Below are positions 3,465 through 53,260 of a DNA stretch of 64,000 nt, piece by piece; the first letter of the stretch is position 1; each line of letters begins with the position of its first letter. The translations under genes and the position numbers were made by a program. Source of the DNA: Promethearchaeota archaeon (GTDB taxonomy: Archaea; Asgardarchaeota; Lokiarchaeia; Sigyniarchaeales; SOKP01); NCBI GenBank assembly GCA_016839555.1, contig JAEOUA010000002.1:26369-90368 (forward strand), given 5' to 3'. The notes under the pieces were generated by a model. The model did no database searches and was not told the DNA's origin. It worked only from the letters and a program-made list of their open reading frames with translations.

Positions 3465-3594
3465 CTTATTATTAAAATTTTTTATTAAAAAATTTGGTAA
3501 AAGTTTTTTGCTTTATTGTTTTATAAATAGAAATACAATCTTATTATAAATAAAGGTAAAACAATCTGAATTCTAAATATTGGAGAAATTTTTA

Positions 3595-5070: not shown

Positions 5071-5101
5071 TTTATAAAATCAATTAATATGAGTTGAAAA
5101 T

Positions 5102-6121: not shown

Positions 6122-6345
6122 ATAATATTCATCCCTTTATAATTATTCTTTAGAATTGAATTTTATTTTTATTATGAAAACATTAGATTAGAATTAGAAT
6201 TAAATTATATTTATGCTTTTTGTTTCTATTAAATAATTTCTAGTATTAATCTCTAAATTTTAATAATTTGAAAATAAAGCCAATGAAAACTATATTTTAT
6301 TTTAGAACTATTATAAATCTTAATTAATTTTTAACTAATAACATA

Positions 6346-7248: not shown

Positions 7249-7336
7249 ATTTGAAGATTTGTACTTTATTATATTTTAATATTTAGATTCGAATTTATTT
7301 TTAAAAAGATAAAAAATTTGGACAAATTAAAACAAT

Positions 7337-7510
7337 CTAAAATACGAGCAGCTTTATTACTTGAAGTAAAGATCCATAAGTTTTCAAGATGAAGGTAATA
7401 AGCTTTAATCCATCATTATATTTAAAGGTTGAAAGAAATTTTGGTCCTTTTTTGCGAAGCTCGGGATATGTATCTTGACCAGAATCTTTGTATTTAATAT
7501 CTAAAAGTTT
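7337..7510 (-). pseudogene. Internal relic of a GH4 glycosidase gene
   Basis: Hand translation LLDIKYKDSGQDTYPELRKKG...LKTYGSL matches the GH4 G(E/Q)DLYP.LR block, cf. GEDLYPKLRE in the intact GH4 at 61-62 kb; no start codon. Confidence 0.55.
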
Positions 7511-7707
7511 TTATTTAATTTTATTTTTTAAATTTTCTTTGAAGCATGGGAGGACGATATGGATTTAACTGCTCAACAATTCTCAACTTAGGGTTTTTTA
7601 AGTATTGTTAAAAAACAAGACTTAATGTAAGATTTATATACTTATCGATATAATAATAAAATGTTAGTTTTAAATAAATAATGCAAGAAATAAAGAATTA
7701 ATAAAAT

Positions 7708-9123: not shown

Positions 9124-9282
9124 GAAGAGAAGTTTATAATATCATCGAATGAAATAAGAGAAATCTTGAATAAATCTCATAGAAATCTTTTTATAAACTT
9201 TTTTTTTCAATTTTTATTAAAATTTTGAAACTAAATTTAATTATTATTCATTAAGGTCCTCAAAATCAATGGTAAGTAATAG

Positions 9283-9423
9283 ATGAAATCAACGCTTAAG
9301 GTTCGAATTAGTTTAAATGATGCCCATTACGGGCGTAATCTAGTGGATGGTGCAAAGTTTCTTGAATTATTTAGAGATGTCGCCACCGAACTTCTAATTA
9401 AAAATGACGGGTATTTCCTATAA
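9283..9423 (+). pseudogene. kal: Truncated 3-aminobutyryl-CoA ammonia-lyase (hotdog fold), N-terminal 46 aa only
   Basis: [43 protein letters not shown] matches the Kal signature DAHYGGNLVDGA...FGDVATEL; conserved Gly residues replaced by Arg; early TAA. Confidence 0.75.
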
Positions 9424-9598
9424 AAAAGCAGCGAAAATGATCATTTCTCTTTTATCATGCTTTTTGCCATAATTTAAATTATAAAATAATAATGATACTA
9501 TTGGTCTTTTATTATTTAAATAGAAAAAAATTTAAATAGAATTTTTAATTTTCAAAATCAAAAGTTATGAATATAGAATACACATCTTAAATACTACC

Positions 9599-10000
9599 AT
9601 GTCTGACGAGAAACTAGAAGAAATAAAAAGGAAGAAATTTGAAGCCTATATGAACATACGTGCTCTGCCTAAAGAAATCGTACATTTAGATACTCCTGAA
9701 AGCCTTCGAGATTTGATTAATAAATTTCCTAATAAAGTGATTATAATTGATTTTTGGGCACAGTGGTGTGCGCCATGTTTGAGTTTTGGCCCTATTTTTG
9801 AAGCATTTCAAAAAGAATATGGAAATACCTTTATATTTACTAAAGTTAATGTAGATAATAACCCACAATTAGCTCAACACTTTGGTATTACGGGAATACC
9901 AACTACAATCTTTCTTAAAGATGGTAAATTGCTTCGTAAACAAGTAGGGGCTATGAATTATGAAAGTATGAAATTATTACTTAATAAATTTAAATCGTAA
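9599..10000 (+). CDS. trxA: Thioredoxin
   Basis: WCAPC active site, cis-Pro IPT motif, archaeal-type N-terminal LEEIKRKK helix. Confidence 0.92.
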   Translation: MSDEKLEEIKRKKFEAYMNIRALPKEIVHLDTPESLRDLINKFPNKVIIIDFWAQWCAPCLSFGPIFEAFQKEYGNTFIFTKVNVDNNPQLAQHFGITGIPTTIFLKDGKLLRKQVGAMNYESMKLLLNKFKS

Positions 10001-10069
10001 CTTAACAAGGTTCCGTATTTCTTTATAATATTTAAAAATTAGAAAATACTGTTATAAAGGTTTATAAAA

Positions 10070-10537
10070 ATGAAGAGTATATCAGAACAAATAGAAGATT
10101 TTGAAAAGAAAGATTATCTAAAGTTAAAGAAAAGAAATATCTTCAAAAGTGAGAACCTGTTTATGGCAATTCTAGGATTAAATCTACTAGAAACACGAAT
10201 ATTTGCATTTTTATTGAAAAATAAAGATGTAAGCACCTCTAGAATGACTCAACTTTTCCAGATGGATAGAAGTTCTATTCAAAGAGCCTTAAAAACGCTT
10301 ATCGATATGGAACTTATAAAAAGAAAATCAATGTCCTTAAAACAATATTCAAATTTAAAAAATTTAGACTCAACAACTAAAAGAGGCTATTTATATGCTT
10401 ATAATGCCTTGGACATTAAAACGATTCAAAAACGTATGATTAATTTACTTGATAAATGGTATGAGTCTATGGCTAACTATATTCACGATTTAGACTCGCT
10501 ATTTGATTGCTATGAAGAAGATGGAAGGCTCTGCTAA
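10070..10537 (+). CDS. Winged-HTH transcriptional regulator (TrmB/GbsR-like)
   Basis: LGLNLLETRIF...DRSSIQRALKTLIDMELIKR HTH; GYLYAY wing. Confidence 0.75.
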   Translation: MKSISEQIEDFEKKDYLKLKKRNIFKSENLFMAILGLNLLETRIFAFLLKNKDVSTSRMTQLFQMDRSSIQRALKTLIDMELIKRKSMSLKQYSNLKNLDSTTKRGYLYAYNALDIKTIQKRMINLLDKWYESMANYIHDLDSLFDCYEEDGRLC

Positions 10538-10811
10538 ACTTATTTTCTATTTAATCTAAGTCTTGCTAAATATCTCTAATAATCTTTCTCATTTTTCTTT
10601 TAAATTACTTTAGATCAAGAGATATAGAAAATACTGCACTATTTTTAAAAATTTAATTAATCGATTGGTCATTAAAAATTTGATTTTGTTACCCTAGAAA
10701 ACATAAATAAAATTTTATAATAATATCCTTAATAAAATTCAGAAGTTAAACAAAAGGAATACTAAATCAGTGAAACTACAAAAAATAATAAAAAAAACAA
10801 AAAAAAGTCAG

Positions 10812-11075
10812 TTAGGCACTCTCTAAAATATATAGCATACTTCCATGAGGAATGAAAAATCTATCTTTTTCCTTGATGATTACTGTATGAAAATATTCCG
10901 CTAACCCCAAAAAACCTCGTATCACACTTTCATCCTCTTCGAATAAAAATTTCACATGGACAATTCCATTTTTTGCCGAAATCTTTACCTCATCATACAC
11001 ACGTTCATCAATCAGCGGTATTTTTAACTCATTTATGATTTCAAAAACACGTTTTATAAATAATTCAGAACTGAT
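10812..11075 (-). CDS. Small hypothetical protein (ORF track starts at 11000; frame is open upstream, possible ATC start at 11075)
   Basis: Uninterrupted frame ISSELFIKRVFEIINELKIPLIDERVYDEV...; AAAGGTG SD-like motif 8 nt upstream of the ATC. Confidence 0.55.
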   Translation of the reverse strand: MSSELFIKRVFEIINELKIPLIDERVYDEVKISAKNGIVHVKFLFEEDESVIRGFLGLAEYFHTVIIKEKDRFFIPHGSMLYILESA

Positions 11076-11464
11076 AAGCCTTGCACCTTTTTTATAATTT
11101 TATTTTATTATAGTGATCTTTATAATAAATTATTCTAATAGTTATAAAAATCTTATAATTTAGTAATAATAATGAACCACTATATTTATTCATATTTTAA
11201 TTTTAATCTCTTAATCTTTCTTTAAGAAAAAGCATTAAACAAATATAAAATTGAGAATATTTCTGTGTTACTATTCTCAAGGTTTCAAGATCTCTATTAT
11301 AATGGAAAATTGGTGAATAATATTCCTATTTTGGCTAAAAACTCTTATTTGGCAAATTCTATAGAGATTAAAGCTAATTTGATTATTAATAAACATTTCA
11401 TAAGGAATAAGAAACAATTAAATAATAAAAAAAAAGAATTTCAAAAAATTTGGACTTTAGATTT

Positions 11465-12865
11465 TTATGGTTTTATAATATCAGATTTACTTAAGGCCGT
11501 GATGGTTTTATCTTTAGGTTCTGGTACAAATAGGAGTGTAATAAATATTGCGATAAATGCGATTAAACTTATGCTCATTCCTGTTCCAAGAGCCGTCATA
11601 GAAACTAGCGGATTTAATAATCTCTCAGTTATGCTACCAAATGGATTTAGTGCGTCTGAAATTAATCCCACAAAAAAACCGCCAAATGAAGCCCCTCTTG
11701 CGATGGAAAAAATTATCGAATTTGCAGATGCTCTTAGTTCTGTATCGTATAATTCCGAAGACCATACTCCAAATATCCCGTGCAATCCAAATCCAAGTGC
11801 GATTATTATGCTTGTAATTAATAGTGCATTAGAGTTATAGGCAAAAAAGATAGTTATTGCAAAGATAACTCCACCGGTAATTCCAACGATATTATCTAAT
11901 CCAAATGCCCTCTTTCTTCCAATATAATCGCTTAAAAATCCAAAAAAGAACAATCCAATGGCCGCAATAACCATCACAACGAGCATATAAAGTAGAGAAG
12001 TTGTTTTAGCCGTAGTACCTCCTGTATATTGGAAGAAGTTTTGAAAAATTTGAGCGATAAATGTCTCTAAACGAGCTGTAGCCGAAGCAGAAATCTCATT
12101 ATAAGTAAAAAGATACTGAAAAAACTGAGGAGCGAGGTCAACCATAGCATGATACGCAGTTTCTGCGAAATAGAACAAAAGGGTTAATAATATGGTTAAT
12201 TTCACCCATTTTTTACTGAAAATCTCCTTCACTCGTAATTTATGCTTTTCCCCTTTCTTTTTTCGAATTTCCTCATATTCAGACCATACTTCAGATTCTG
12301 GCAAAGCAATCCAAAATAAGATTAAGAATGGAAATGGAAATAAAGCCGTTAGAAAGCACCATTGCCACCCTATGGGTCCTAATATCATTGTTATTACAAG
12401 AGCGCCAATATATCCCAAAATAAATGTTGAATGTACTAATCCCCCGGCAGCACCCCTCTTTTTGGGTGAAAAATATTCTGAGATAATAGAAAATGAGATC
12501 CCCCAGGAGACTCCAAGACCACTGCAAAGTCTTAACACGGCAAAAAGCCAAAACATATTTGCTGGTACTAGAGCAGTTAATGAGGAAAACACTGCATCCC
12601 ATGCGATTGACAAAATTAACGCCTTCTTCCGTCCAAAACGGTCGCCTAATTCTCCAAAAAGTACAGCACCCGGTACTGTAAACACAAATTGAAGCGAAAT
12701 TACTAATCCAATATGCGCGTCTGAAATTCCCACAAAATATGCCTGTAACTCAGTAGAGAGAGCGCTAATAAGAACCAGAGAATATCCATCGTGCATCCAC
12801 GCAATAAACGCAGCCAGTAAAATAACAACAGTTGTACCCAAAGCTCTTTTGCTTTCTTGTGCCAT
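11465..12865 (-). CDS. MFS transporter (aromatic acid/sugar porter-like)
   Basis: GELGDRFGRKK and SDYIGRKR motif A copies; SEYFSPKKRG; SELYDTELRA. Confidence 0.9.
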   Translation of the reverse strand: MAQESKRALGTTVVILLAAFIAWMHDGYSLVLISALSTELQAYFVGISDAHIGLVISLQFVFTVPGAVLFGELGDRFGRKKALILSIAWDAVFSSLTALVPANMFWLFAVLRLCSGLGVSWGISFSIISEYFSPKKRGAAGGLVHSTFILGYIGALVITMILGPIGWQWCFLTALFPFPFLILFWIALPESEVWSEYEEIRKKKGEKHKLRVKEIFSKKWVKLTILLTLLFYFAETAYHAMVDLAPQFFQYLFTYNEISASATARLETFIAQIFQNFFQYTGGTTAKTTSLLYMLVVMVIAAIGLFFFGFLSDYIGRKRAFGLDNIVGITGGVIFAITIFFAYNSNALLITSIIIALGFGLHGIFGVWSSELYDTELRASANSIIFSIARGASFGGFFVGLISDALNPFGSITERLLNPLVSMTALGTGMSISLIAFIAIFITLLFVPEPKDKTITALSKSDIIKP

Positions 12866-28823: not shown

Positions 28824-29597
28824 ATGTTAAAGGATAAAGTGGCAGTTATAACTGGAGGTGCCCAAGGAATTGGGAAAGCAATTGCTATTAGATTTGCTCA
28901 AGAAGGAGCAAAAATAGCTATTATTGATTTAAAAGATTCAGCTAAGACTGAAAATGAAATCAGAAATATTGGGGGCGAAATGATTTCTTTCATTGCTGAT
29001 GTTGCTGATGAAATATCTGTAAAAAACGCTTTTAATGCTATTATAGAAAAATGGGAAAAAATAGATATCCTCGTTAATAATGCAGGAATCTACCCACTAG
29101 AAAATTTTATCGATATATCAATAGAAAAATTTAAAAGAGTGTTCGATACAAATGTTATAGGAACCTTCATCTGCTCGCAATACGTTGCAAATATATTTAT
29201 CTCAAAATCAATAAAGGGAACTATTCTAAATATCGCGTCAGCAGGAGGAATTAGACCAGATAAATATCATAGTCATTATGGTGCGTCGAAAGCTGCAATA
29301 ATTTCCTTAACAAAAGCAATGGCAAAGGAACTAATTAATAATAAGATTCGAGTAAATGCCATAGCTCCTGGAGCTATCAATACTGAAGGATCAAAAAATC
29401 CAGGGCTTTTTGAAAATTCGGGAAAATTACCGGATAAATTTATGGAGGAACAAATGAAAAAATTTTCTCCTCTAACAAAATCAGGAATGGGAGAACCAAT
29501 AGATGTTGCTGAAATGGCACTGTATCTCGTTTCAGATAAAGCTAAGTATATTACTGGGGCAATTATTCAAGTGGACGGTGGCCGTCTTTTATTTTAA
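28824..29597 (+). CDS. Short-chain dehydrogenase/reductase (FabG-like)
   Basis: TGGAQGIG, NNAG, YGASK, VNAIAPG, VDGG. Confidence 0.93.
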   Translation: MLKDKVAVITGGAQGIGKAIAIRFAQEGAKIAIIDLKDSAKTENEIRNIGGEMISFIADVADEISVKNAFNAIIEKWEKIDILVNNAGIYPLENFIDISIEKFKRVFDTNVIGTFICSQYVANIFISKSIKGTILNIASAGGIRPDKYHSHYGASKAAIISLTKAMAKELINNKIRVNAIAPGAINTEGSKNPGLFENSGKLPDKFMEEQMKKFSPLTKSGMGEPIDVAEMALYLVSDKAKYITGAIIQVDGGRLLF

Positions 29598-29839: not shown

Positions 29840-31744
29840 ATGGGAAAAAATATCATCATATTTCAACCAGAAGGGAAACGTGTTGAAATAGAAAAAGAAG
29901 ACTCAATTTTGAGTGCTGCATTAAAAGTTGGTGTTGATTTAGTCTCAATTTGTAATGGAAAGGGAACATGTGGTAAATGTAAGGTCATTATAGATAATAT
30001 GGATTCTGTAACTTCTTTAACAGAAAAAGAATCTGAAATGTTATCCAATGATGAGAGAAAAAATAATATACGTTTAGCATGTTTGACAAAAGTTAAAGGA
30101 GATTTAACAGTAAAGGTTCCTGAATTTAGTAGAACAGGTAAACAACGTCTTCAGATCGAGGGGATAGAGACCCCTATAAATTTAAATCCCTTGATTAGAA
30201 AGTATTATTTAGAATTAGAGGAACCTACCTTAGATGATCCTAGATCAGATGTTGATAGAATTATGGATTATTTATATGAGAATTTTAATCTATCGAATTT
30301 AAATATGGATTATTATTTATTAAAAAACCTCGCTAAAATCTTGAGAGAAGCAGAGTGGAAATTTACTGTGGCAATCTGGCAAAATACTATAATAAATATT
30401 GATATTAATGATACGACAGACCGTGTATTTGGATATGCTGTAGATATAGGAACAACAAAACTAGCTGGTTATTTAATTGACTTATTGACTGGTAAAGTTG
30501 TTGCAGCTGGTTCTTTAATGAATCCTCAAATTCCTTATGGAGAAGATGTTGTTTCCAGATTAAACTATCCTGATCAAAAGAAACTACAAGATGCAGTTAT
30601 AGAAGGAATAAACCAGATACTTAATGATTTAAAGGAAAAAACAGCTGTAAAGTCTGAGGAAATCTATGAAATGACAGCTGTCGGAAACACTATTATGCAT
30701 CATTTATTTTTAGGAATTTTTCCTTTATATGTTGGAAGATCTCCATACCCTCCTGTTGTTCGTGAAACGCAAATTGTTAATGCAAGAAATTTAGGCGTAA
30801 AAATTCATCCAAACGGAAGAATTGTATTTTTGCCTACAATTGCAGGATTTGTAGGAGCAGATACCGTTGGAGTTGTCCTCTCTACAGAACTTTATAAAAG
30901 CGAAGATATTTGCCTAGCTATTGATATAGGGACTAACACAGAAGTTGTGCTAGGAAATAAAGATAAGATGTTAGCTGCTTCATGCGCTTCAGGTCCAGCG
31001 TTTGAAGGGGCACATATTAAATTTGGAATGAGAGCAGCTAGTGGATCCATAGAGAATATCAAGATTGATCCAGAGACACTTGATGTTGAATATAAAACTA
31101 TAGATAATGAGCCTCCAATTGGAATATGTGGTTCGGGTATGATTGATTTAGTAGCAGAAATGTTAAAAACAGGAATTATTGATGTGGGAGGAATAATTAA
31201 TCGAAGTCTTAATAGTCCAAGAGTGCGTAGGAATGAAGAATCAATAATAGAATTTGTCGTTGTCTTCTCAGATAAGACAGGAATTAAAAAAGATATTACA
31301 TTTTCTCAGCAAGATGTAAGTCAAATTATTTTAGCTAAAGCTGCAATGCACACAGGCATAAAGCTCTTATTAAAGAATTATAACATAAAAAAAGAAGATA
31401 TTCATAAAGTCTATTTAGCAGGTGCTTTTGGTTCTCATATCAATAAAGAAAGTGCAAGAATGATAGGAATTTTTCCAGAAATAGATTTAGAAAAAGTAAT
31501 TATTGTTGGAAATGCTGCTGGAACAGGAGCAAGAATGTGCCTTGTTTCAGAAGAAGCTAAAAAATTAGTTGAGAAGCTTTCCAAAAAAATAAGATATTTA
31601 GAACTTGGTAATGACCCTGATTTTCAGAAAACATTCATGAATTCAAATATCATTCCATATGCTGATCTGGATGAATTTCCTGAAATATCCAAGACATTAA
31701 AAAAATATGGAAATTATCCTGAACAATCTCCCCCCAAATTTTAA
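29840..31744 (+). CDS. ATP-dependent reductive activator of corrinoid proteins (RACo, ASKHA/DUF4445) with N-terminal 2Fe-2S domain
   Basis: CNGKGTCGKC...RLAC ferredoxin; DIGTT, GEDVVSR, DIGTNTE, GPAFEG, GICGSG, LAGAFG, GNAA. Confidence 0.93.
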   Translation: MGKNIIIFQPEGKRVEIEKEDSILSAALKVGVDLVSICNGKGTCGKCKVIIDNMDSVTSLTEKESEMLSNDERKNNIRLACLTKVKGDLTVKVPEFSRTGKQRLQIEGIETPINLNPLIRKYYLELEEPTLDDPRSDVDRIMDYLYENFNLSNLNMDYYLLKNLAKILREAEWKFTVAIWQNTIINIDINDTTDRVFGYAVDIGTTKLAGYLIDLLTGKVVAAGSLMNPQIPYGEDVVSRLNYPDQKKLQDAVIEGINQILNDLKEKTAVKSEEIYEMTAVGNTIMHHLFLGIFPLYVGRSPYPPVVRETQIVNARNLGVKIHPNGRIVFLPTIAGFVGADTVGVVLSTELYKSEDICLAIDIGTNTEVVLGNKDKMLAASCASGPAFEGAHIKFGMRAASGSIENIKIDPETLDVEYKTIDNEPPIGICGSGMIDLVAEMLKTGIIDVGGIINRSLNSPRVRRNEESIIEFVVVFSDKTGIKKDITFSQQDVSQIILAKAAMHTGIKLLLKNYNIKKEDIHKVYLAGAFGSHINKESARMIGIFPEIDLEKVIIVGNAAGTGARMCLVSEEAKKLVEKLSKKIRYLELGNDPDFQKTFMNSNIIPYADLDEFPEISKTLKKYGNYPEQSPPKF

Positions 31745-31780
31745 TATTATAATGCAATAAATTGATTAATTCTTAGAAAA

Positions 31781-33514
31781 ATGAATAAAAGAGAAGGAAA
31801 GAGAATCCTCAAGAATTTTAATCCCAAAATATTCAATGATGCAGTCATTTCATTGGGAACAGAAGATATACAAGTAGTGAATTTTGATATTACTCGAGCA
31901 ATCGCAAAAGTTATTAAATCAATGTTTGGTCCTAAGGGATTAAATAAGATGATCATTCCCGTGTCAAATGAGACTGTTTTTACCCAAAAGGGAGATAAAG
32001 TTGTAAAAAGTTTTAAAAGCAGGGTTCCCATAACTATGATGCTAATAGATTTAGTAAAAACACAACAGAAGAATTGTGGGGATGGAACAAAAACAGCGTT
32101 ATTACTTACGGCATTTCTACTAGAAAAAACTAGAGAAATGTTGGGACTTGGACTACATCCTCAGATAATTAATAAAGGTTTTTCGATTGCTATGAATAAA
32201 GCTCTTGAAATCTTAGAAGATAATGTTATTCAATTTGATTTCCATAATGAAAGACAATTAATTGATATAATGAAAAGCGTTATGAATCATAAATTTGTTT
32301 ATCAGAATAGAGATCAACATATAAAGTTAATTAAAGAAACACTTAAGAACAATTATGATCTTTTTTTTAAGTCTCAAGATTATGATCATTCTGATATTCT
32401 TTGTAGAAAAGTAAAAGGAAAATCTATTAATGATTCTGAAGTTATAAATGGGATTATAATATATAAAGATAAGGCAAATTCATATTTACCCGATAAAATT
32501 GAAGACGCGGGAATACTATTAATTCAAAAATCTATAGATTATTTTACTAAGGAAAATAAAGAAGCTATTTCAAAAGAAGTCAGGATTAAGAGTAGAGAGA
32601 AGCTACAAGAGTTTTCCCAATTTAGAAAGAATTTCTATAATAATTTAGTAAAAAAATTAAAACAAAAAGGGGTTAATGTTATCTTATGCCAGAAAAAAAT
32701 CAATCCTTATTTTGTGGATTATTGTGCTAGTAAAGGAATAGTTGCTTTAGAATTAGTGGGAAAGAAAAAATTAAATAAATTATGCAAATTATTGGATGTT
32801 AATCTCTACTCAAGTTTGAATGATTTATCTAATATAAAATTAGGTAAAGCTGATTCTGTCGAATTTAAAAAGATATCGGGAGATGAAATGTTTATTATAA
32901 ATGTTGAAGAGTCAAAAATTCTTACATTCTTAATAAGAGGTGGAAATCAACCCTTAATGGATGAATTAGAAGAGATATTATATGGTTCTTTAAGGGTTGC
33001 AATTCAAACAGTAAAAGATAAAAAAATATTGCCAGGAGGCGGAGCATTAGAATGCGAAATAGCGCAAAAACTTAAAAAATATGCTCAGAATTATTCTAAT
33101 AAATATCAAATAGTAATTAAAGAGTATGCCAAAGCTTTTGAAAGCCTTCCAGGTCATATAATTAAGAATTCTGCAGCTGAGCCTCTTGATTTAATACCTC
33201 GATTACGAGCAGAACACAATAAAGGTCAATGTTATATGGGATTTAATTCTTTGACCAATGAAATAGTAGATGTTGTAAGAGAGGGGATTTATGATGGATA
33301 CTATACAAAAAAACATATTATAAAAATAGCTAGTGAACTTGCGCGACAAATAGTACGTATTGATGGCTTAGTAATGGTATACGACCGAAAATTATATGAA
33401 CAAGTTAAAAAAGAAGGAAGAGAGATAAAAAGCCAAAAGCATCAAGAGAAAGTCAGAAAATATCTTAATAAAAAAGATCAGGACTTATTTTCTGAGATTT
33501 ATAATGCTAAATAA
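31781..33514 (+). CDS. Divergent group II chaperonin (thermosome) subunit
   Basis: FGPKGLNKM, GDGTKT, HPQII..G, LIRGG, PGGGALE, VRID. Confidence 0.88.
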   Translation: MNKREGKRILKNFNPKIFNDAVISLGTEDIQVVNFDITRAIAKVIKSMFGPKGLNKMIIPVSNETVFTQKGDKVVKSFKSRVPITMMLIDLVKTQQKNCGDGTKTALLLTAFLLEKTREMLGLGLHPQIINKGFSIAMNKALEILEDNVIQFDFHNERQLIDIMKSVMNHKFVYQNRDQHIKLIKETLKNNYDLFFKSQDYDHSDILCRKVKGKSINDSEVINGIIIYKDKANSYLPDKIEDAGILLIQKSIDYFTKENKEAISKEVRIKSREKLQEFSQFRKNFYNNLVKKLKQKGVNVILCQKKINPYFVDYCASKGIVALELVGKKKLNKLCKLLDVNLYSSLNDLSNIKLGKADSVEFKKISGDEMFIINVEESKILTFLIRGGNQPLMDELEEILYGSLRVAIQTVKDKKILPGGGALECEIAQKLKKYAQNYSNKYQIVIKEYAKAFESLPGHIIKNSAAEPLDLIPRLRAEHNKGQCYMGFNSLTNEIVDVVREGIYDGYYTKKHIIKIASELARQIVRIDGLVMVYDRKLYEQVKKEGREIKSQKHQEKVRKYLNKKDQDLFSEIYNAK

Positions 33515-33700
33515 TTCTTTGTTAATTTTCAGTTTTTAATCAAACACTAAGAAATTATTGAACAAAATTCTTCAAAAAATAATTTTTTCTCAATAGCTGC
33601 AGTTGGATTATTGCTTGAAATAGCAAGTAAAAAATATATATTCCAAAGATTTTTAATTCTACATAAATATTAACTAAAGCATAATAAATGGTGATAAAAT

Positions 33701-34120
33701 ATGAATGTAAGTCCAAATGAGAACTTAGAAGGATTTGCTGCTCTTATGCATAATCAATTCGTACGACCTCTTAAGGACAGTAAAAAATTCAAAGAAAAAT
33801 ACAAAAAAACCAATGTAAAATTATTTTTTAATATAATTGATGCTACTCACTCTGCAATATTAATCCTTGAAAATGGAACAATTAATATTAAAGGGATTCT
33901 TCGAGAAAATGAAGATGAAATTGAGAAAGCGAAAAAGGAATGTGATGCTAAAATCGAAACTGACATGAAAACTTTTATAAAAATAGATGATATGTCGACT
34001 CTTCGGACCCTTAAGAAGATTATATCAGGAAAATTGAAGATAAAGGGAGGAAAGCAATTAAAATTACTTCAAGAGTTACGTGTGCTTGCAGAAGAGGAAG
34101 ATGCTCAAGATTTTTTTTAA
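33701..34120 (+). CDS. SCP2-like (sterol carrier protein-2 fold) protein
   Basis: DAKIETD...F, IISGKLKIKG signature. Confidence 0.65.
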   Translation: MNVSPNENLEGFAALMHNQFVRPLKDSKKFKEKYKKTNVKLFFNIIDATHSAILILENGTINIKGILRENEDEIEKAKKECDAKIETDMKTFIKIDDMSTLRTLKKIISGKLKIKGGKQLKLLQELRVLAEEEDAQDFF

Positions 34121-34242
34121 TAGGAAATTTAAATAATTAAAAAAATCCTTTTTATTTTTACTAAAAGTTGAATGAGTTTTTATTACTAAAAATATAATTA
34201 AAATGTTATTATAAAATCAAGAAAGACTTTTCAAGCGGGAAA

Positions 34243-35472
34243 ATGAATAAACAACATAACATAGATGAGCTAATTTTAAAGATTGAATATGATCCTGATC
34301 AAAAATCCAGAATCAAGAGTTTACAAACACTTAAAGAATTAGAATTACTAACTTTTGCTCATATTAATTTTTTAGAGAATTTAGCAATTGGAGACACCAA
34401 CCTTAATATAAGGCAAATAGCTTTAAGCATTCTCATAAATAAATTCTATGAGAAAGTGAACTTATTAATCGAATGGATATTCCAATTTGAAAAAACACCA
34501 AGAATTGCGGCAACGGTTACGGGATTGTTATTTAAGAAAAAAAAAGAAGATTTAATGGAACATATAATTAGATTTTTAGATAATAATGTAAAAAACAATG
34601 GTAATTTAAGTCTTAAAATATATAACAAAGAATTATCGAAGTTGTTTAATAATAAATCTTTAAAGTCTTTTTCTAGTGAAGAGTTAATGAATATATATCT
34701 TAATTATATATTTATTTTAAATCTAGAAGAAAGGTTTAAATTCTCGGAAAACCTTAACACCAAGTCGCTAACATACATACTTAAGGAAGGCCTTATTGTC
34801 GAATTAAGAATATGGGGCCTTACTCTTAGGAAAGTGAGTGAAATTGATGGTATTGAATTATTGAAAATGTTAAGAGTATTAGATCTTTCAGGTAATAATT
34901 TTCAAGAAATTAACGGATTAGAATCTTTAAAATCATTAGAAATTCTTAAATTTGGTGATCTAAATTATGGTACTGGAAATCAAATTACCGAAATCAAAGG
35001 ATTATCCTCATTGAAAAATCTAAGGGTACTAAATCTCTCTAATAATTATATCAATGAAATCAAAGGACTTGAAAATTTGCTTGATCTTAAGAGACTATAT
35101 CTTGTCAATAATTCATTAAAAGAGATTAAAGAGCTAGATATGCTTCATAGCCTAGTTTATTTAAATCTTGAGAAAAATCATATTACCCAAATTCAGGGTA
35201 TTGATCAATTAATTTCATTAGAAGTTTTAGTTTTAGGAAAAAATTCAATCGTAAGATTAAATATACCAGACCTTCCGAATTTGAAAGAAATAAGAATTTA
35301 TGGTAATCCTCTTTCTGAAATTGGACCAACAAAATTAAAAAATGAAATTGAATTAAAATTATACTCCTCCGAAATTGAAAAAATGAAGTGGTTAAATTCT
35401 ATTACTGGAATTAAAATAAAGAGTGTTGAAACAGTAAAACCTACCGAATATGAATCTAGATATTTACAATAA
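34243..35472 (+). CDS. Leucine-rich repeat protein (SDS22-like) with N-terminal HEAT-like region
   Basis: Repeated LxxLxLxxNxIxEIxGL units. Confidence 0.88.
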   Translation: MNKQHNIDELILKIEYDPDQKSRIKSLQTLKELELLTFAHINFLENLAIGDTNLNIRQIALSILINKFYEKVNLLIEWIFQFEKTPRIAATVTGLLFKKKKEDLMEHIIRFLDNNVKNNGNLSLKIYNKELSKLFNNKSLKSFSSEELMNIYLNYIFILNLEERFKFSENLNTKSLTYILKEGLIVELRIWGLTLRKVSEIDGIELLKMLRVLDLSGNNFQEINGLESLKSLEILKFGDLNYGTGNQITEIKGLSSLKNLRVLNLSNNYINEIKGLENLLDLKRLYLVNNSLKEIKELDMLHSLVYLNLEKNHITQIQGIDQLISLEVLVLGKNSIVRLNIPDLPNLKEIRIYGNPLSEIGPTKLKNEIELKLYSSEIEKMKWLNSITGIKIKSVETVKPTEYESRYLQ

Positions 35473-35533
35473 CTTTTTTTAATAATGCTAAAAGTATATT
35501 GAATTTAAGCAAAGCAAGTTTTTGAGAATTATC

Positions 35534-36178
35534 TTAAAGAAATATTAGATTGAATAATGTTCTTTCAATTTTGCGAATATGCTCGTATATAGCACTTTGA
35601 GAAATTTTAAAATGTTCGGCTAAATCTGAGCCGTTAATTTTACGAGGAATTTCAAAATAACCATTTTTAACTGCATAATATGCAATTTCCTTTTGACGGT
35701 CAGTTATTAGAAAAAATAGATTATCAAGATTTGGATGTATATTTGTTATACTCAAAATTTTAAATCCTGAACCAAAAATTTTTTCATTTTTAGAGATGAT
35801 TTTGTCAAGATTTTCATTATCACAAATAAATGAGATAGTCATTGAATTATTTTCCATTATTATTGGAGGATCAATAATAAAATCAGGGGCATTTGTAATA
35901 TCTTTCATCTCATCCAGCCATTTAGAACCTGCAAAACAAACAAACTCATTCGTTTTTTTATCTTGTGTTAAAACTTCAATATATTCAATTCCATATTGCC
36001 CCTCAAACGCTTTTGGATTAATATTAGGATCTTTGAATTTAAATTTTTCAGTTGCATAAATGATCTCTTCATCTATACGGTATATTTGACTTATTTCAAA
36101 ATATTCAATCCTTTCAAAAAAATCTTGAAAGCTTGGATGAATAGGTGTTTTTAAAGTTAATCTTTTTTTCTTTTTCAT
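35534..36178 (-). CDS. HTH_10 (Bat-type) transcriptional regulator
   Basis: ITDRQKEI..YAVKNGYFEIPRKI...LAEHFKISQSAIYEHIRKIE. Confidence 0.88.
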   Translation of the reverse strand: MKKKKRLTLKTPIHPSFQDFFERIEYFEISQIYRIDEEIIYATEKFKFKDPNINPKAFEGQYGIEYIEVLTQDKKTNEFVCFAGSKWLDEMKDITNAPDFIIDPPIIMENNSMTISFICDNENLDKIISKNEKIFGSGFKILSITNIHPNLDNLFFLITDRQKEIAYYAVKNGYFEIPRKINGSDLAEHFKISQSAIYEHIRKIERTLFNLIFL

Positions 36179-36223
36179 TTAAATCGCTTCCAAATTTTAA
36201 TAATTAAAAATATAATTAGAGAC

Positions 36224-36241
36224 TGCTTTACTTCTCAAGCA
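36224..36241. promoter_or_regulatory. Inverted repeat TGCTT-N8-AAGCA, candidate operator in the divergent regulator/mttB promoter
   Basis: Perfect 5-bp arms in a 163-nt intergenic region between divergent genes. Confidence 0.35.
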
Positions 36242-36341
36242 TAATTTATTTTTATTTCCTATTATATTTAAATTATACTTAGAATTAGGTTTTTTAGCTA
36301 AAATTAAAAGAATTAAATAATCTTAAAAAAATAAGTGTGTA

Positions 36342-37862
36342 TTGAATATGAGAGAAGGTGAGAAAGTAAGATATCCAAAAATGAATAGAATGTGGCGTAT
36401 TGCCTCTAAAGAAGATTTAGAGAGAATTGACAATGCAGCATATCATATCTTGAGCGAAATTGGGGTTCATATCGATGATAAAGACTGTATAGAGTATTTA
36501 AAGGACGCCCCAGTAGAAATAGATGAAAAGGAACTTATTGTGAAGTTTCCAGAGTATTGGGTAAGAGAAATGATTGCAAAAGCTCCAAAATCTTATCTTT
36601 TAGCTGCAAGAGATCCTAATAATGATTTACTTGTGTCTAGTTACCATAATGATTTTTATAACCTTTTCACTAGTGGCTCGACAAAAATGTATATTTGGAA
36701 TGAACAAACAAGTCAATGGGATTCTAAAACTCCTGGTGAAGAAGATGTAATAAGAGGTTTTAGAATGATTGATGCAGTTGATGCATATGATGGATTTTTC
36801 GGAACTCCCGTTGAAGATGTGAAACGTAGTCATCAAGGACTTCCTGCGGAGTTACATACAACCTATAATAAGATGAAATTCTCCACTAAACATGGAGGAC
36901 CATGTGCAATAACAGAAGGAGGATTAAAGGAATGGGATTATGTAGGTAAATTGGCTGCCGAAGTGCAAGGAGGTTTTGATGAATTAAAAAAACGTCCTAT
37001 AATTGCAGGATTACCTACAACTATTGGACCTCTAACCTGTACGCGACAAAACTTTTGGGCAGCGGTCGGAAGTGCGAAATATCATTTACCAACATATCCA
37101 TATTGGGGTGGAACAGCACCTTTTACCGCACCAGCAACAGCTCCAGCACAAAATGCCTTAGCTGTGGCGTGTACTCATTTTTGTATTGCATTATCGCAAT
37201 ATTTAGATCCTGGAACGGCAGCTATTCCTTGGCCTCAACCTACATCTGTCGACCCTCAATCAGGACAATTAGCTGTGGGTCCTCTCCCTAGTATATTACT
37301 CGGAATGGGGGGTCAAGTTTATCAAGATTTATACGGTCTTCCTATTGGGGGATGTGCATATTGTTTGTCATCATCCTTAGATGAAGCGGGAGCTACATGG
37401 GCATTATCTTTATTAATGGAAGCATTATGGGGTGTTAACATACAACAAGTAGGTTCTACACCTGGAGCGTTTATGTGGGAGACTATTGTAATGGGTGAGA
37501 CTTTAGTTAATTACACGAAACAAGTACTCTATGAACTTACTGAAGATGTGCTTAATATAGATGAGGAACATTTAGCATTAGATGTCATAAAAGAAGTCGG
37601 GCCAAAAGGACAATTTACAACACATCCTCAAACGTTGAAATGGATCGATCCTAAGATGGGATTATTCTGGCATTCTAATGATTGGATCCATGAGCATTCC
37701 GATCAGTGGCTCCAGAAAGGAGCTAAAACGTGGGTTGAAATATGCCGAGAACGTTTGAAAGAATTGGATAAACATCAACCAGATCCAGAAATCGCAAAAG
37801 ATGTGGATGAGCGTTGTAATGCAATCTTAAAAGAAGCAGATGAGGAGCTCGCATTATTTTAA
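36342..37862 (+). CDS. MttB-superfamily corrinoid methyltransferase, non-pyrrolysine
   Basis: LERIDNAAYHILSEIGV, VKFP..V...IAKAP, ARDP, TAPAT, EEHLALDVIKEVGPKGQFTTHPQT; no in-frame TAG. Confidence 0.88.
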   Translation: MNMREGEKVRYPKMNRMWRIASKEDLERIDNAAYHILSEIGVHIDDKDCIEYLKDAPVEIDEKELIVKFPEYWVREMIAKAPKSYLLAARDPNNDLLVSSYHNDFYNLFTSGSTKMYIWNEQTSQWDSKTPGEEDVIRGFRMIDAVDAYDGFFGTPVEDVKRSHQGLPAELHTTYNKMKFSTKHGGPCAITEGGLKEWDYVGKLAAEVQGGFDELKKRPIIAGLPTTIGPLTCTRQNFWAAVGSAKYHLPTYPYWGGTAPFTAPATAPAQNALAVACTHFCIALSQYLDPGTAAIPWPQPTSVDPQSGQLAVGPLPSILLGMGGQVYQDLYGLPIGGCAYCLSSSLDEAGATWALSLLMEALWGVNIQQVGSTPGAFMWETIVMGETLVNYTKQVLYELTEDVLNIDEEHLALDVIKEVGPKGQFTTHPQTLKWIDPKMGLFWHSNDWIHEHSDQWLQKGAKTWVEICRERLKELDKHQPDPEIAKDVDERCNAILKEADEELALF

Positions 37863-37879
37863 AGAAAGGTGAAATAAAA

Positions 37880-38548
37880 ATGACAAGTAAAGAAGAGATA
37901 GTTAATGGAATGAAAGAAGCTATTCTTACTTATAAAAAGGAGGAATGCTTGGAACTCGCCAAGCAAGGACTTGCGGAGAAAATAAAACCCTTAGAATTAA
38001 TCCAAGAAGGACTTACAACAGGAATACAGGAACTTGGAGCAAGATTTGGAAGAGGTGAGGTCGCCCTTCCTTATTTAATGGTGGGAGCAGAGGTTATGCA
38101 GAAATCTTTAGAACATATTTTAGAGAATATCCCAAAAGGAGAATATAAACCTAAAGCAAAAATGGTTATTGGAACGGTAAAAGGAGACATTCACGATCTT
38201 GGCATAAGTATCGTGACAGCGGTATTTCAAGCCAATGGAATTCAAGTTTTCAATCTTGGAAGGGATGTTTTGAAAGAGAAATTTATTGAAAAAGCAGAAG
38301 AGGAAGAAGTTGATATAATTGGAACATCCGCCCTTCTTACCGGCACCATGTTTGAACAGAAAGTGGTAATCGAATATCTCAAAAAACAAGGTCTCCGTGA
38401 TAAATATATCTATTTAATTGGTGGGGGTGCGTGTCCCGGTCAAGATTGGTGTGATGAGATTGGAGCGGATGGATGGGCTACTGACGTGCTGCTTGGACTA
38501 GCTGCTACTAAGAAAGCATTGGCTGAAAAGAAAGGAATTGAACTCTAA
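37880..38548 (+). CDS. Methyltransferase cognate corrinoid protein (MttC/MtgC-like)
   Basis: Cap domain plus GTVKGDIHDLG (DxHxxG), LGRDV, SALLT, IGGG, IGADG. Confidence 0.93.
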   Translation: MTSKEEIVNGMKEAILTYKKEECLELAKQGLAEKIKPLELIQEGLTTGIQELGARFGRGEVALPYLMVGAEVMQKSLEHILENIPKGEYKPKAKMVIGTVKGDIHDLGISIVTAVFQANGIQVFNLGRDVLKEKFIEKAEEEEVDIIGTSALLTGTMFEQKVVIEYLKKQGLRDKYIYLIGGGACPGQDWCDEIGADGWATDVLLGLAATKKALAEKKGIEL

Positions 38549-38601
38549 TTCTATTTATATATTAAAATAGAATATTAAAAATAAATAAGAGATGAAAAAA
38601 T

Positions 38602-38934
38602 ATGGTTGACGTACAAGAGGGATTTGAATCGATGAAAAAAACCTTCAAACCGGAAGTTGCTAAAGAATTTAAGAAAAAAGTAGTCATCCAGTATAATATT
38701 GAAGGATCAGGAGGAGGAACATGGCAAGTAATCTTTGATAATGGTGAAATGGAAATTGTTGAAGGGGAAAAGGAAAAAGCAGTTATAAAATTTAATTATG
38801 ACTCTGTAGAGAGCTTTGTGGGGATTCAAAAAGGAGAAATTGACGGTATTCAAGCATATACTACAGCAAAGCTCCGTATTGAAGGACCCGTAGCTTTAGC
38901 GCAAAAAATTGGAGAAATTTTTGGAGCTGTTTAA
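38602..38934 (+). CDS. SCP2 sterol/lipid carrier domain protein
   Basis: IQYNIEGSGGGTW, GEIDGIQAYTTAKLRIEG. Confidence 0.85.
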   Translation: MVDVQEGFESMKKTFKPEVAKEFKKKVVIQYNIEGSGGGTWQVIFDNGEMEIVEGEKEKAVIKFNYDSVESFVGIQKGEIDGIQAYTTAKLRIEGPVALAQKIGEIFGAV

Positions 38935-39072
38935 AAAATAAATAATTTAATTTTTTTTTTATATATTAAAGAGATAAAGAATTAGTATTAAATGTAAATT
39001 TTATTAGTTAAAAGAGTAAATTTATTTCTGAAATAATCAAATAATTGGCTCTAAAAGTTGAAATAGGTTTTA

Positions 39073-39978
39073 TTAATTAATTTTAAATACAGGGTGATTT
39101 GGTGGTGGAATTTCTTTACCATCAAATAATAATTGGGAATGGGCGGCTTTAATAAAAGCAACATTAGGATATATTATATCTGCAAGTTGGATTGGACCAT
39201 AAAAAATAAAATCTGCTCCCGCTGATAAAGTTATGGTAGATGCTGCTATTTTTATGTATTTTTTTATGTTGCCGAATTTTGGAATGAGATTTATCCAAAC
39301 ATCAGCAAGATTTTGCCCAGCAGTTCCTGCAGGATAACCGTATTTATTTTTAATTTCTTCGATAGTGCTCATTGCAATTCCAAAAGAGGTATAATCGATT
39401 GTACATGTATCAATCATGAAGTTATAACCCTTCAAATCATATGATAAAGCCTTATTTATAAGATTATCAACTAAATTCATCCGAGCTTTCGTTGTCCAAT
39501 AATAAGTTTCAATAGGTAATAAAAAAAAATTTTCTATATCTGTATAGGTTAAAAATTCAAATTCTTCGTCAAATGACGAGGATGTAATAGTATTGTAAAC
39601 TACTTGTCGATCCAAACCAGTCTCAATAAGATATTCGATTAGTGGCTTCTTAATTTCCCAATAAGGAGCATCAACTAAAATAGGAGTATCGCTAACATCA
39701 AATACGAAATCTAAAATAGGTGTTATAGATTTCTCATAAGAAAGAATGACATCAAGTAAAGGAGTTAAGCCTGTTTTATCTGCCATTTCTTCTTGTTTTT
39801 TAATTAAAGATTCAGCGTAAATTGTATCAATTTTTCCTTGCCTTTCATCTTTAAAGATTTTATTTTGGTCTTTATAAAAAATAGTACCTGCTAATGCTGT
39901 TGGTACCTTTCTTGGATCCCCGCCTATACAATATTTTCCTATTTTATAAGACTTTTGTTCTGTATTATATTGAAACAT
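39073..39978 (-). CDS. MtrH/MtgA-like methylcorrinoid:pterin methyltransferase
   Basis: IGGDP...PTALAGTIFY, PILVD, VYNTI, MID, GYPAG, GADFIFYGPI. Confidence 0.85.
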   Translation of the reverse strand: MFQYNTEQKSYKIGKYCIGGDPRKVPTALAGTIFYKDQNKIFKDERQGKIDTIYAESLIKKQEEMADKTGLTPLLDVILSYEKSITPILDFVFDVSDTPILVDAPYWEIKKPLIEYLIETGLDRQVVYNTITSSSFDEEFEFLTYTDIENFFLLPIETYYWTTKARMNLVDNLINKALSYDLKGYNFMIDTCTIDYTSFGIAMSTIEEIKNKYGYPAGTAGQNLADVWINLIPKFGNIKKYIKIAASTITLSAGADFIFYGPIQLADIIYPNVAFIKAAHSQLLFDGKEIPPPNHPVFKIN

Positions 39979-40003
39979 TTACTTACCAGAATTAATTATT
40001 AAA

Positions 40004-40909
40004 TTATCCTATTTTAAACACAGGATGATTTGGAGGAGCCATTCTACCTTCATCGAACAATAATTGGGAATGGGCGGCTTTAATGAATGCTACATTAGGA
40101 TAAATGAGATTAGCATGTTGTATTGGACCATAAAGTATAAAATCAGCACCAGCTCCTAAGGTAATAGTTGATGCTACCACGGAAGCATACTTTTTGATAT
40201 TTCCAAACTTAGTTTTTAAATTACTCCAAGTATCTACAGCATTATGAGCTCCAGAGCCAACGGGAAATCCATATTTATTTTTAATTTCATACATAGCACT
40301 CATTGCTAATCCCAATGACGTCATATCTATAACGGCAGTATCGATAATAAAGTTATATTCTGCCAAATCAAAACTTTTTGCTTTCTCAATTAAATTATCA
40401 ATCACTTCGATTCGAGCTTGAATAGTCCATTTTTTTGATTCCATGCCCAGGAGTATAAAATTTTTGATTTTACTCTTAACGAGCAGTTCAAATTCATCAT
40501 TACCTGATTCAGGAGTTATCGAATTATAGATAATTCTTTCTTGAACTCCTGCTTCTTTAATATATTCTAAAGCATTCATCTTAACATCATCTGTTGGAGC
40601 ATCTAATAAAATTGGCATATCAGTTACATCAACAACAAAATCAAGTATCGATTTAACAGATGTTTCATATGATATAATGACATCCAACCCTGGAACTAAA
40701 CCAGTTTTATCAGCTAATTCTTCTTGATCTTTAATTAATGTTTCGGCAAAATCCTTGATTATTTCCCCTTTAGTTTCATCCTTAAAGATATTTTTTTGTT
40801 TTAAATAAAAAATCGTGCCAATAACTGCTGATGGAGCCTCTCTGGGATCTCCTCCAATACTATATTTTCCAACTTTATATGATTTTTGTTTTACATTAAA
40901 ATTGAACAT
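40004..40909 (-). CDS. MtrH/MtgA-like methylcorrinoid:pterin methyltransferase
   Basis: IGGDP...GTIFY, IYNSI, IDTAV, GFPVGSGAHNA, GADFILYGPI, HPV. Confidence 0.88.
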   Translation of the reverse strand: MFNFNVKQKSYKVGKYSIGGDPREAPSAVIGTIFYLKQKNIFKDETKGEIIKDFAETLIKDQEELADKTGLVPGLDVIISYETSVKSILDFVVDVTDMPILLDAPTDDVKMNALEYIKEAGVQERIIYNSITPESGNDEFELLVKSKIKNFILLGMESKKWTIQARIEVIDNLIEKAKSFDLAEYNFIIDTAVIDMTSLGLAMSAMYEIKNKYGFPVGSGAHNAVDTWSNLKTKFGNIKKYASVVASTITLGAGADFILYGPIQHANLIYPNVAFIKAAHSQLLFDEGRMAPPNHPVFKIG

Positions 40910-52384: not shown

Positions 52385-53260
52385 TTAGTCAAAAAGCTTT
52401 ATGTTTTTCTCTTTTACGATTTTTTTGAATTGGAAACTCTGATAAGCTGATGCAAAACTTTCCGTGGCATCTTCAATTGCTCCATAAAAAATAAAATTTG
52501 AATACCATGTTGCGACAAACATAATACTTGCTCTTCTAAATTTAGTGTGAAATTTTTTATTCAATCGAGGAGAGGAATATTTAAATAAAAAGAGATTTGG
52601 AGCAGTCCCAACAGGTAAATTTAATGATTGACATATTAATTTTTGTGTTTCTAGAATATGGGCTAGGCTTTCTAAATCAATTACACCTCCATCAACCATT
52701 ATTTTTTCTATTCCTAAATTTTTAAGTCCTTGAATTAAACTTACATTTCCTGGTTGGTTTTTTGCCGTAAGATATGCATACCGCTGCGTGGAGGTCATAT
52801 TTTCCGAGCTAAGCATTAATACTACAAGGCTTTCGATATGATATTTCTTAAGAAGTTCAAGCTCTTTTTTATTTTTCAAATTGGTAATGGCATTATATAT
52901 ATATTCTGCTGGTTTTATACCCCTCTCATATAAATATTGGATTCCTGCTATTCGGGTTTCAAGGGTACCACCCAAAACAAAAGGGGTTTCATAATTATCC
53001 AAGTAGAACTCTAAATATTTTATCATGGCATTCGCATTACTTGCTGAGATTTCAATCATAGCCGGAATTTTATATTGGGAAGCTAACTTTTTTTGATTCT
53101 CTATTCTTTTTTTTGCCTTTTGTTCATCAAATCTTTCTGGATTTTCTTTCTCGACTAAAGTTTGTCCATCATAAAACATTGTCCCAATTAAAACTGGAGG
53201 TAAATTAAAATGACCTCGACCAATTTTCACATTTTTAATATTATAAGCTGAGTTGGTCAT
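52385..53260 (-). CDS. Divergent MtrH-like protein
   Basis: PPVLIGTMFY, FDEQKA, IYNAI, VD.GV, LPVG, NFIFYGAI. Confidence 0.75.
   Translation of the reverse strand: MTNSAYNIKNVKIGRGHFNLPPVLIGTMFYDGQTLVEKENPERFDEQKAKKRIENQKKLASQYKIPAMIEISASNANAMIKYLEFYLDNYETPFVLGGTLETRIAGIQYLYERGIKPAEYIYNAITNLKNKKELELLKKYHIESLVVLMLSSENMTSTQRYAYLTAKNQPGNVSLIQGLKNLGIEKIMVDGGVIDLESLAHILETQKLICQSLNLPVGTAPNLFLFKYSSPRLNKKFHTKFRRASIMFVATWYSNFIFYGAIEDATESFASAYQSFQFKKIVKEKNIKLFD

Follow-up and report, generated by a model that had tools for sequence, protein, structure and literature searches.

The 64,000-nucleotide (nt) stretch of a Promethearchaeota archaeon genome analyzed here (positions 26,369 to 90,368 of contig JAEOUA010000002.1, assembly GCA_016839555.1; referred to below as the window) is AT-rich, with about 25–35% GC, and contains a gene cluster with the components of a corrinoid methyl-transfer system (Table 1), the gene families being assigned with Pfam and NCBIfam. 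Within this cluster, mttB, which encodes a methyltransferase of the MttB superfamily that lacks pyrrolysine (Pyl) and is the putative first methyltransferase (MT1), is followed after 17 nt by a corrinoid protein gene and after a further 53 nt by a gene for a small SCP2 protein, both gaps being those given in an earlier, sequence-only reading of this DNA. The other genes named in that reading, for a RACo activase, an HTH_10 regulator, and two MtrH proteins convergent to the mttB unit, are likewise present with Pfam or NCBIfam matches, and the four-part set of MT1, corrinoid protein, second methyltransferase (MT2), and activase that it proposed is complete, with family matches for every part and for the divergent regulator. 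The bounds that it drew hold for these genes but not for the cluster as a whole, since a core short-chain dehydrogenase/reductase (SDR) gene lies just outside them and was missed. With moderate confidence, the cluster is interpreted here as an accessory corrinoid methyl-transfer system of Loki/Hel-type Asgard archaea, which contains a new MttB subfamily and has SCP2, SDR, and chaperonin proteins in its core; that it carries out corrinoid methyl transfer is very probable.

Table 1. Features of the probable corrinoid methyl-transfer cluster and the genes interspersed with it (positions of the window)
Feature	Position	Strand	Basis of assignment
Classical NAD-type SDR	28824-29597	+	Pfam adh_short (185 bits)/adh_short_C2
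RACo/AcsV-type corrinoid activase	29840-31744	+	RACo_C_ter 324 bits, Raco_middle, RACo_linker, Fer2; NCBIfam AcsV 546 bits
Divergent thermosome (group II chaperonin) paralog	31781-33514	+	Pfam Cpn60_TCP1 (PF00118) 400 bits
139-amino acid protein p139	33701-34120	+	SCP2 fold by AlphaFold2 model and Foldseek
Leucine-rich repeat (LRR) protein	34243-35472	+	Pfam LRR_4/LRR_8
HTH_10 (bacterio-opsin-activator-type) regulator	35534-36178	-	Pfam HTH_10 62.5 bits, residues 158-209
MT1, non-Pyl MttB-superfamily methyltransferase	36342/36348-37862	+	PF06253 119.8 bits
Corrinoid protein (MtgC/MtbC-like)	37880-38548	+	B12-binding PF02310, B12-binding_2 PF02607; NCBIfam MtgC 183.6 bits
SCP2 protein, 110 amino acids	38602-38934	+	Pfam SCP2 (PF02036) 41.8 bits (cut-off 21.3)
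T10 run	38951-38960	+	17 nt past the SCP2 stop codon, direct sequence reading
MT2 candidate 1, stand-alone MtrH/MtgA family	39073-39978	-	MtrH (PF02007) 180.9 bits; MtgA 135 bits, below cut-off
MT2 candidate 2, MtrH/MtgA paralog	40004-40909	-	MtrH (PF02007) 220.3 bits; MtgA 170 bits, below cut-off

The activase combines a 2Fe-2S ferredoxin domain with linker, middle, and ASKHA domains, and the gene for the thermosome paralog begins 36 nt past it. The corrinoid protein carries the DxHxxG motif as DIHDLG, and the HTH_10 gene is oriented divergently from mttB. The listed open reading frame of mttB starts with the TTG at 36342, and since its orthologs align from residue 3, the real start is probably the ATG at 36348. 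The two MtrH paralogs are about 60% identical to each other; a third stand-alone MtrH-like gene (52385–53260, minus strand), far more divergent, scores 117 bits to PF02007, and the genome holds eight MtrH-family genes in all. The genes that flank the cluster, for NUDIX, ribonucleotide reductase, CAAX protease, and GH57 proteins, are unrelated to it.

A database search with MttB returned 28 proteins at least 49% identical to it, all from Loki- or Hel-archaeal sources, and beyond these the other MttB-family matches had identities of 28% or less; by sequence comparison, MttB is thus a distinct Loki/Hel-archaeal clade and a new subfamily. The match to PF06253 extends over the full length and exceeds the 25-bit cut-off. 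The best matches in the PDB are the trimethylamine methyltransferase MttB of Methanosarcina (7XCL, 6e-30, full length), a Pyl enzyme of the same TIM-barrel family, and the glycine betaine methyltransferase MtgB (2QNE/9YCE, 1e-25). Unlike the former, the window protein does not qualify as a Pyl-MttB: its reading frame is continuous over 506 amino acids with no in-frame UAG, its TIGR02369 score of 166.9 bits lies below the 525-bit cut-off, and the Pyl position falls in a stretch (residues 335–341, with C-A-Y-C in the window) that is the most variable region within the clade. Members of the clade were found in 8 of the 400 Asgard genomes sampled, and all six further genomes from the genus of the window lack them, which indicates an accessory trait. 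A sister MttB group, 33–36% identical (380–414 bits), is present in two other Asgard families. The window's own genome also has, on another contig, two canonical MttB genes with a corrinoid gene, and no SCP2, SDR, RACo, or thermosome gene adjoins this pair. In one of these canonical genes (G000:C7:66960–68402; 10982–12412 of locus L063), the family match spans two in-frame TGA codons, which could mean that the gene is a pseudogene, is recoded, or was misassembled.

Glycine betaine is bound in MtgB by Y97 and F356, which form cation-π interactions, and by R312 and H348, which interact with the carboxylate (PMC13080624). Residues were mapped by aligning a profile of the clade with 9YCE and 2QNE, in which the 9YCE index + 2 recovers all four site residues. 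In this alignment, at an identity of about 25%, F356 corresponds to F377, which is invariant in the clade, whereas Y97 corresponds to S111, R312 to position 336, which is basic in 0 of 20 sequences, and H348 to position 370, which is V, I, or F (V370 in the window). Membership of the MtgB group therefore fails through the loss of Y97 and of both carboxylate ligands, and because the latter are gone, MttB does not appear to be a plain glycine betaine enzyme. An enzyme of that plain type would, by the terms of the sequence-only reading, have refuted its proposal; the alignment, indicative at this identity, speaks against it. The invariant F377 may be the one retained hallmark of methylammonium binding. 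It also bears on the alternative that the donor is not an amine but a hydrophobic O- or S-methyl compound, for example a methoxylated aromatic or a methylated lipid or terpenoid, which SCP2 would solubilize and whose product the SDR would process. Such a donor would be in keeping with the low identity of MttB to any characterized member (28% at most), with the variable, Cys- and Tyr-rich character of the Pyl-aligned stretch, and with partners of the SCP2, SDR, and FAD-oxidoreductase types, which suit hydrophobic alcohols or ketones. However, the known O-demethylases and thiol methyltransferases have other folds, of the UroD superfamily (PMC13222342), and the cation-π Phe of MtgB is retained throughout the clade; a donor of this kind is considered improbable. 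CdmB (chloromethane) was weighed as a precedent for non-amine substrates in the MttB family but was not adopted.

Gene order was examined by comparing 24 related loci (denoted below by L numbers) with the window proteins, and orthogroups were sought in the sample of 400 Asgard genomes. The arrangement MttB-corrinoid-SCP2, in this order and on one strand, is present in every one of the 15 modules that have enough downstream DNA, so that the conservation of this synteny across Asgard genomes, which had been set beforehand as a test, is borne out. These modules span 55–88% MttB identity and include the window, the duplicate modules in L026 and L035, and a module in L029 whose corrinoid gene is truncated. 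Downstream of SCP2 the usual order is SDR-RACo-thermosome, the SDR being directly after SCP2 in L026, L032, L033, L034, L039, L043, L045, and L008 and elsewhere in the cluster in L036 and L031/41. In the window this trio has been relocated upstream of mttB, which accounts for the SDR having been left uncounted in the earlier reading. RACo is kept in L026, L029, L032–L034, L036, and L039 and in the sister-clade loci; an ortholog of the HTH_10 gene lies divergently upstream of mttB, or within the cluster, in at least 12 loci; and both MtrH paralog types occur as a tandem pair in L026, L027, L034, L035, L036, and L042/44. The SCP2 orthogroup (≥140 bits) is confined to genomes with the MttB clade and was found in seven of these eight; in the eighth (G173), an SCP2 copy of 75 bits lies upstream and the contig ends in mttB. 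No corrinoid gene lies within 1.5 kb of any of the lower-scoring SCP2 homologs that were sampled (L073–L095). Five of the 400 genomes, all with the MttB clade, carry the SDR orthogroup (E ≤ 1e-60). In view of this invariant position and exclusive co-occurrence, SCP2 and the SDR are likely to be functional parts of the methyl-transfer system.

Two to three tandem MttB-corrinoid-SCP2 modules, each with its own HTH_10 gene, are found in L026 (an ABR06 contig, positions 1–10598) and L035 (3160–10571), and the lower identity of the paralogous MttB proteins (61–68%) than of the corrinoid copies (96–99%) suggests gene conversion of the corrinoid-SCP2 part or fast divergence of MttB. One contig with an Asgard-type cluster (DATKTP010000214.1; L031/L041/L049) has the GenBank title 'Candidatus Deferrimicrobium sp.', yet its genome is placed in the same class as the window, and the title is probably a labeling or binning issue.

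The same observations can be set against the view that SCP2 and the SDR form an unrelated lipid-metabolism module that is hitch-hiking on a mobile or accessory island. The patchy distribution of the clade (8 of 400 genomes, 0 of 6 congeners), the duplication of modules in tandem in L026 and L035, and a possible separate promoter ahead of SCP2 would be compatible with this view, but the position and strand of SCP2, between the corrinoid gene and the SDR or RACo gene, are kept in 15/15 modules over the whole range of MttB identity, none of the 392 genomes without the clade contains either orthogroup, and the usual order places methyl-transfer genes on both sides of the SCP2-SDR pair. Passenger status for the two proteins is thus extremely improbable.

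With respect to transcription, the 17-nt spacer between mttB and the corrinoid gene has a GGTGA sequence 7 nt ahead of the corrinoid ATG, and the T10 run that follows SCP2 is likely to terminate the mttB-corrinoid-SCP2 unit as an archaeal oligo-T signal; these two signals suggest that the three genes form an operon. In the corrinoid-SCP2 spacer, at 38549–38572, a perfect AT-rich inverted repeat of 8 bp, TTCTATTT/AAATAGAA, overlaps a TTTATATA box; it may mark a promoter internal to the unit or a site of processing, or it may have arisen by chance in such AT-rich sequence. The repeats present in the divergent promoter region were regarded as AT-rich noise and given no interpretation.

The 110-amino acid SCP2 protein belongs to PF02036 by its sequence score and by its α/β fold. 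Its AlphaFold2 model has a mean predicted local distance difference test (pLDDT) value of 86.7, and the top Foldseek matches of this model are all SCP2-fold proteins, among them the SCP2 domain of alkylsulfatase, AF1534, SCP2 itself, and the SCP2L domain of MFE-2, at template modeling (TM) scores of about 0.7. In a profile search of 1.8 billion representatives, the nearest relatives outside the cluster are tandem SCP2 repeats or fusions with enzymes, the partners being acyl-CoA synthetase, thiolase-like/DUF35, and FMN-reductase domains, which are enzymes of acyl and hydrophobic substrates; a word-based search for longer, fused forms of the cluster SCP2 found none. The most conserved residues of the protein are aromatic and acidic (F15, Y31, W41, F72, E79, and Y86). 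The SDR is a classical one, with the motifs TGxxxGxG (TGGAQGIG), NNAG, and YxxxK (YGASK), and an Asp after β-2 suggests that it uses NAD.

The second SCP2-like gene noted in the sequence-only reading, that for p139, has proved to have the fold but not the cluster membership ascribed to it. By sequence, its relation to SCP2 is below threshold (Pfam SCP2 E value of 0.025; hhalign probability of 1–20%), but the Foldseek matches of its AlphaFold2 model (pLDDT 75) are exclusively to SCP2 folds, namely UbiJ-SCP2, the C-terminal domain of alkylsulfatase, and SCP2. The p139 family is present in 44 of 61 relatives, with several copies per genome dispersed in Lokiarchaeial genomes, and adjoins the cluster only in L035; being multi-copy and widespread, it is a local neighbor and not a core member. 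Similarly, the LRR gene is present as had been described but is a local neighbor, which adjoins the cluster in four related loci (L030, L035, L036, and L077).

Other accessory genes accompany the cluster elsewhere. In L029 (Lokiarchaeon CR_4), a CrtI/amine-oxidase-like flavoprotein with a C-terminal SCP2 domain is encoded directly upstream of mttB (5935–7800), and a fragment of a corrinoid gene is fused in frame to SCP2 (9690–10169), with a methyl-accepting chemotaxis protein (MCP) signaling gene adjoining. Accessory genes are also located beside the cluster in L032 (517–3510 and 6680–7627), L039 (4327–5958), and L036 (7696–8532). They include type-B carboxylesterases of the cholinesterase family in L032 and L039, which are 33% identical to each other, and an MFS_2 transporter and extended SDRs resembling 3β-hydroxysteroid dehydrogenase (3β-HSD) in L032 and L036. 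As judged from their families, these variable neighbors point to hydrophobic or ester substrates.

The chaperonin, which had been described as odd in the earlier reading, is a conserved member of the cluster and is linked to it in L026, L029, L031, L032, and L039 and in the sister-clade clusters L047 and L048. Of the three thermosome copies in the genome, it has diverged most; it matches PF00118 but scores below all NCBIfam thermosome cut-offs and has lost the residues for ATP hydrolysis, TNDG being changed to TQKG, GDGTTT to GDGTKT, and HDAL to YGSL. The same is true of all six clade copies, which have T[QHR]KG for TNDG and GDGTK[TS] for GDGTT(T/S) and in which the catalytic aspartates, including the second one, are gone; the two housekeeping copies of the same genome retain TNDG, GDGTT(T/S), and HDA(L)/HDV(V). 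The paralogs in the sister-clade clusters (L047, 6370–8118; L048, 6429–8165) also carry GDGTKT; that of L048 retains TNDG and the second Asp, whereas that of L047 has lost both. The presence of these paralogs in sister-clade clusters indicates that the chaperonin link is older than the SCP2 link.

The relay of MT1, MT2, and RACo can be read by analogy from well-studied homologs. MT1, a TIM-barrel MttB-like enzyme, would take a methyl group from an N-methylated and probably quaternary-ammonium substrate and hand it to the Co(I) of the adjacent corrinoid protein, from which one or both of the MtrH/MtgA-like MT2 proteins would pass it to a pterin, probably tetrahydromethanopterin (H4MPT), to feed the Wood-Ljungdahl pathway. 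The RACo activase would re-reduce Co(II) with the use of ATP, and the HTH_10 protein would control the divergent promoters. SCP2 may act as a carrier for a hydrophobic portion of the substrate or of the product, a hydroxyl group on one or the other may be oxidized by the NAD-type SDR, and the thermosome paralog, which is devoid of ATP-hydrolysis residues, may be a private holdase or scaffold. In this scheme we infer which way the methyl group flows, which pterin accepts it, what SCP2, the SDR, and the chaperonin do, and that the substrate is amphiphilic or hydroxylated. The genome holds CdhC and Mch, so that a Wood-Ljungdahl pathway of the H4MPT type can accept the methyl group. The proposal in the sequence-only reading that the system is a methylotrophic input to this pathway in Asgard archaea is compatible with that gene set, although the idea is not new, having been published previously (PMC11291895).

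The best precedent for regarding SCP2 and the SDR as clues to the substrate is the MthB/MthC/MthA/MthK system of Eubacterium limosum, in which MthK, an accessory protein encoded in the cluster, defines the true substrate, phosphocholine (PMC12155760). The two systems can be compared by description only, and they differ in that the accessory of MthB is a kinase whereas those of the Asgard cluster, which has no kinase, are a carrier and a dehydrogenase. By this analogy, the substrate or product should bear a hydrophobic part together with a hydroxyl or keto group. It is possible, although the suggestion is a tentative one, that the substrate is amphiphilic or lipophilic. The fuller proposal that SCP2 and the SDR mark an amphiphilic, lipid-linked methylammonium substrate and that the dead thermosome cages or scaffolds the methyltransferase complex as its dedicated partner is unlikely, and a substrate specifically of the phosphatidylcholine, betaine-lipid, or acylcarnitine type is very unlikely; acyl-carnitine or acyl-choline esters, lyso-/phosphatidylcholine, and betaine lipids can be named as lipid-linked candidates only as a guess.

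Several observations weigh against the reading in which SCP2 and the SDR belong to the core of the system and reflect its substrate. The characterized substrates of the MttB family are all small and water-soluble (PMC13080624, PMC12155760). The sister-clade loci, which have about 35% identity and come from other Asgard classes, hold a corrinoid gene, RACo, MtrH, and the thermosome paralog, but within 8 kb no SCP2 was found in them by profile search and no SDR by tblastn, so that SCP2 is dispensable for the enzyme family as such. SCP2 evolves fast, with 32–50% identity between distant modules, and inside a single contig it follows the corrinoid protein (r = 0.80) more closely than MttB (r = 0.54), the paralogous MttB proteins there being 61–68% identical as compared with 96–99% for the corrinoid copies and 73–95% for SCP2; such behavior would be expected of a general accessory more than of a protein that sets specificity. 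SCP2 could have a promoter of its own, since the 53-nt spacer includes a TATA-like TTTATATA together with a hairpin that is AT-rich. The carboxylesterase and other lipid-type neighbors are limited to a handful of loci, and no PF00135 gene is present in the genome of the window. Finally, the mapping of the active site is indicative only at the level of identity between MttB and MtgB.

Several of these points would be accommodated by a methylammonium compound that is small, soluble, and hydroxylated, for example one resembling choline or carnitine, that has no betaine-type carboxylate at the position seen in MtgB, and whose hydroxyl would be oxidized by the SDR and for which SCP2 would be a corrinoid adaptor or scaffold or a head-group binder. 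The small soluble amines used by all characterized MttB-family enzymes (PMC13080624, PMC12155760), the closer covariation of SCP2 with the corrinoid protein than with MttB, and the working of the sister clade without SCP2 all favor such a substrate, and the conserved aromatic and acidic residues of SCP2 could form a cation-π site. In contrast, the fold and nearest relatives of SCP2 are tied to acyl or hydrophobic ligands, no adaptor role of SCP2 in corrinoid systems was found in the literature searched, and the carboxylesterase, CrtI-like-SCP2, and 3β-HSD-like genes at other loci point to hydrophobic or ester substrates. Overall, a soluble substrate of this type is rated as somewhat unlikely.

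Among characterized systems, the glycine betaine:tetrahydrofolate methyltransferase system of Desulfitobacterium hafniense (MtgB/MtgC/MtgA with a RamA-type activase; 2QNE, 9YCE) has the same four-part logic, with a non-Pyl MttB as MT1, a corrinoid protein with DxHxxG, an MT2 of the MtrH/MtgA fold, and an ATP-dependent activase, and its F356 matches the invariant Phe of the clade. It differs in the identity of its MT1 to the Asgard protein, about 25%, and in its carboxylate site, which the Asgard cluster does not have, equivalents of Y97, R312, and H348 being absent; moreover, the Asgard cluster has in addition a second MT2, SCP2, the SDR, and the degenerate thermosome, and it is found in an archaeal host with a pathway of the H4MPT type. 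The SCP2 domains of MFE-2 (HSD17B4), the alkylsulfatase SdsA1, and UbiJ have the fold of the cluster SCP2, and MFE-2 likewise pairs SCP2 with an SDR dehydrogenase. These domains are fused to enzymes, and their structures hold C10–C16 ligands or belong to a protein of ubiquinone synthesis, whereas the cluster SCP2 is free-standing and is usually encoded between the corrinoid protein and the SDR. Clusters of non-Pyl MttB, MtbC, and MtrH have been described in Atabeyarchaeia, Freyarchaeia, and other Asgard and TACK archaea and interpreted as non-methanogenic methylotrophy that feeds the Wood-Ljungdahl pathway (PMC11291895). Methylotrophy by non-Pyl MttB and MtrH in Asgard archaea is thus already published, and those clusters are probably the sister clade, with MttB-corrinoid-RACo-MtrH and a thermosome paralog; in the loci of this type that were sampled (L047, L048, and L050), MttB is 33–36% identical to that of the window, and SCP2 and SDR genes are not present. 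In the literature searched, no relevant paper links MttB/corrinoid systems to SCP2 or, for Asgard archaea, to a thermosome; a partnership of SCP2, SDR, and dead chaperonin with MttB was likewise not found there, and the terms 'SCP2' and 'corrinoid' are mentioned together only in an unrelated paper on human proteomics.

In sediments, quaternary amines and lipids of the choline or betaine type hold major pools of methyl groups; Asgard archaea are abundant there, and their substrates have mostly been guessed. An MttB subfamily that is packaged with a putative carrier for hydrophobic ligands and a dehydrogenase provides a concrete hypothesis, accessible by cloning, that B12 methyltransferases have a further, new class of substrate, and the regulator, MT1, the corrinoid protein, and SCP2 make up a compact set for heterologous tests. 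That a catalytically dead chaperonin is conserved suggests that B12 methyltransferases undergo a step of assembly or scaffolding which has yet to be described. If the lipid-linked reading is true, this would be the first corrinoid-dependent system that harvests the methyl groups of membrane-lipid head groups in anoxic sediments.

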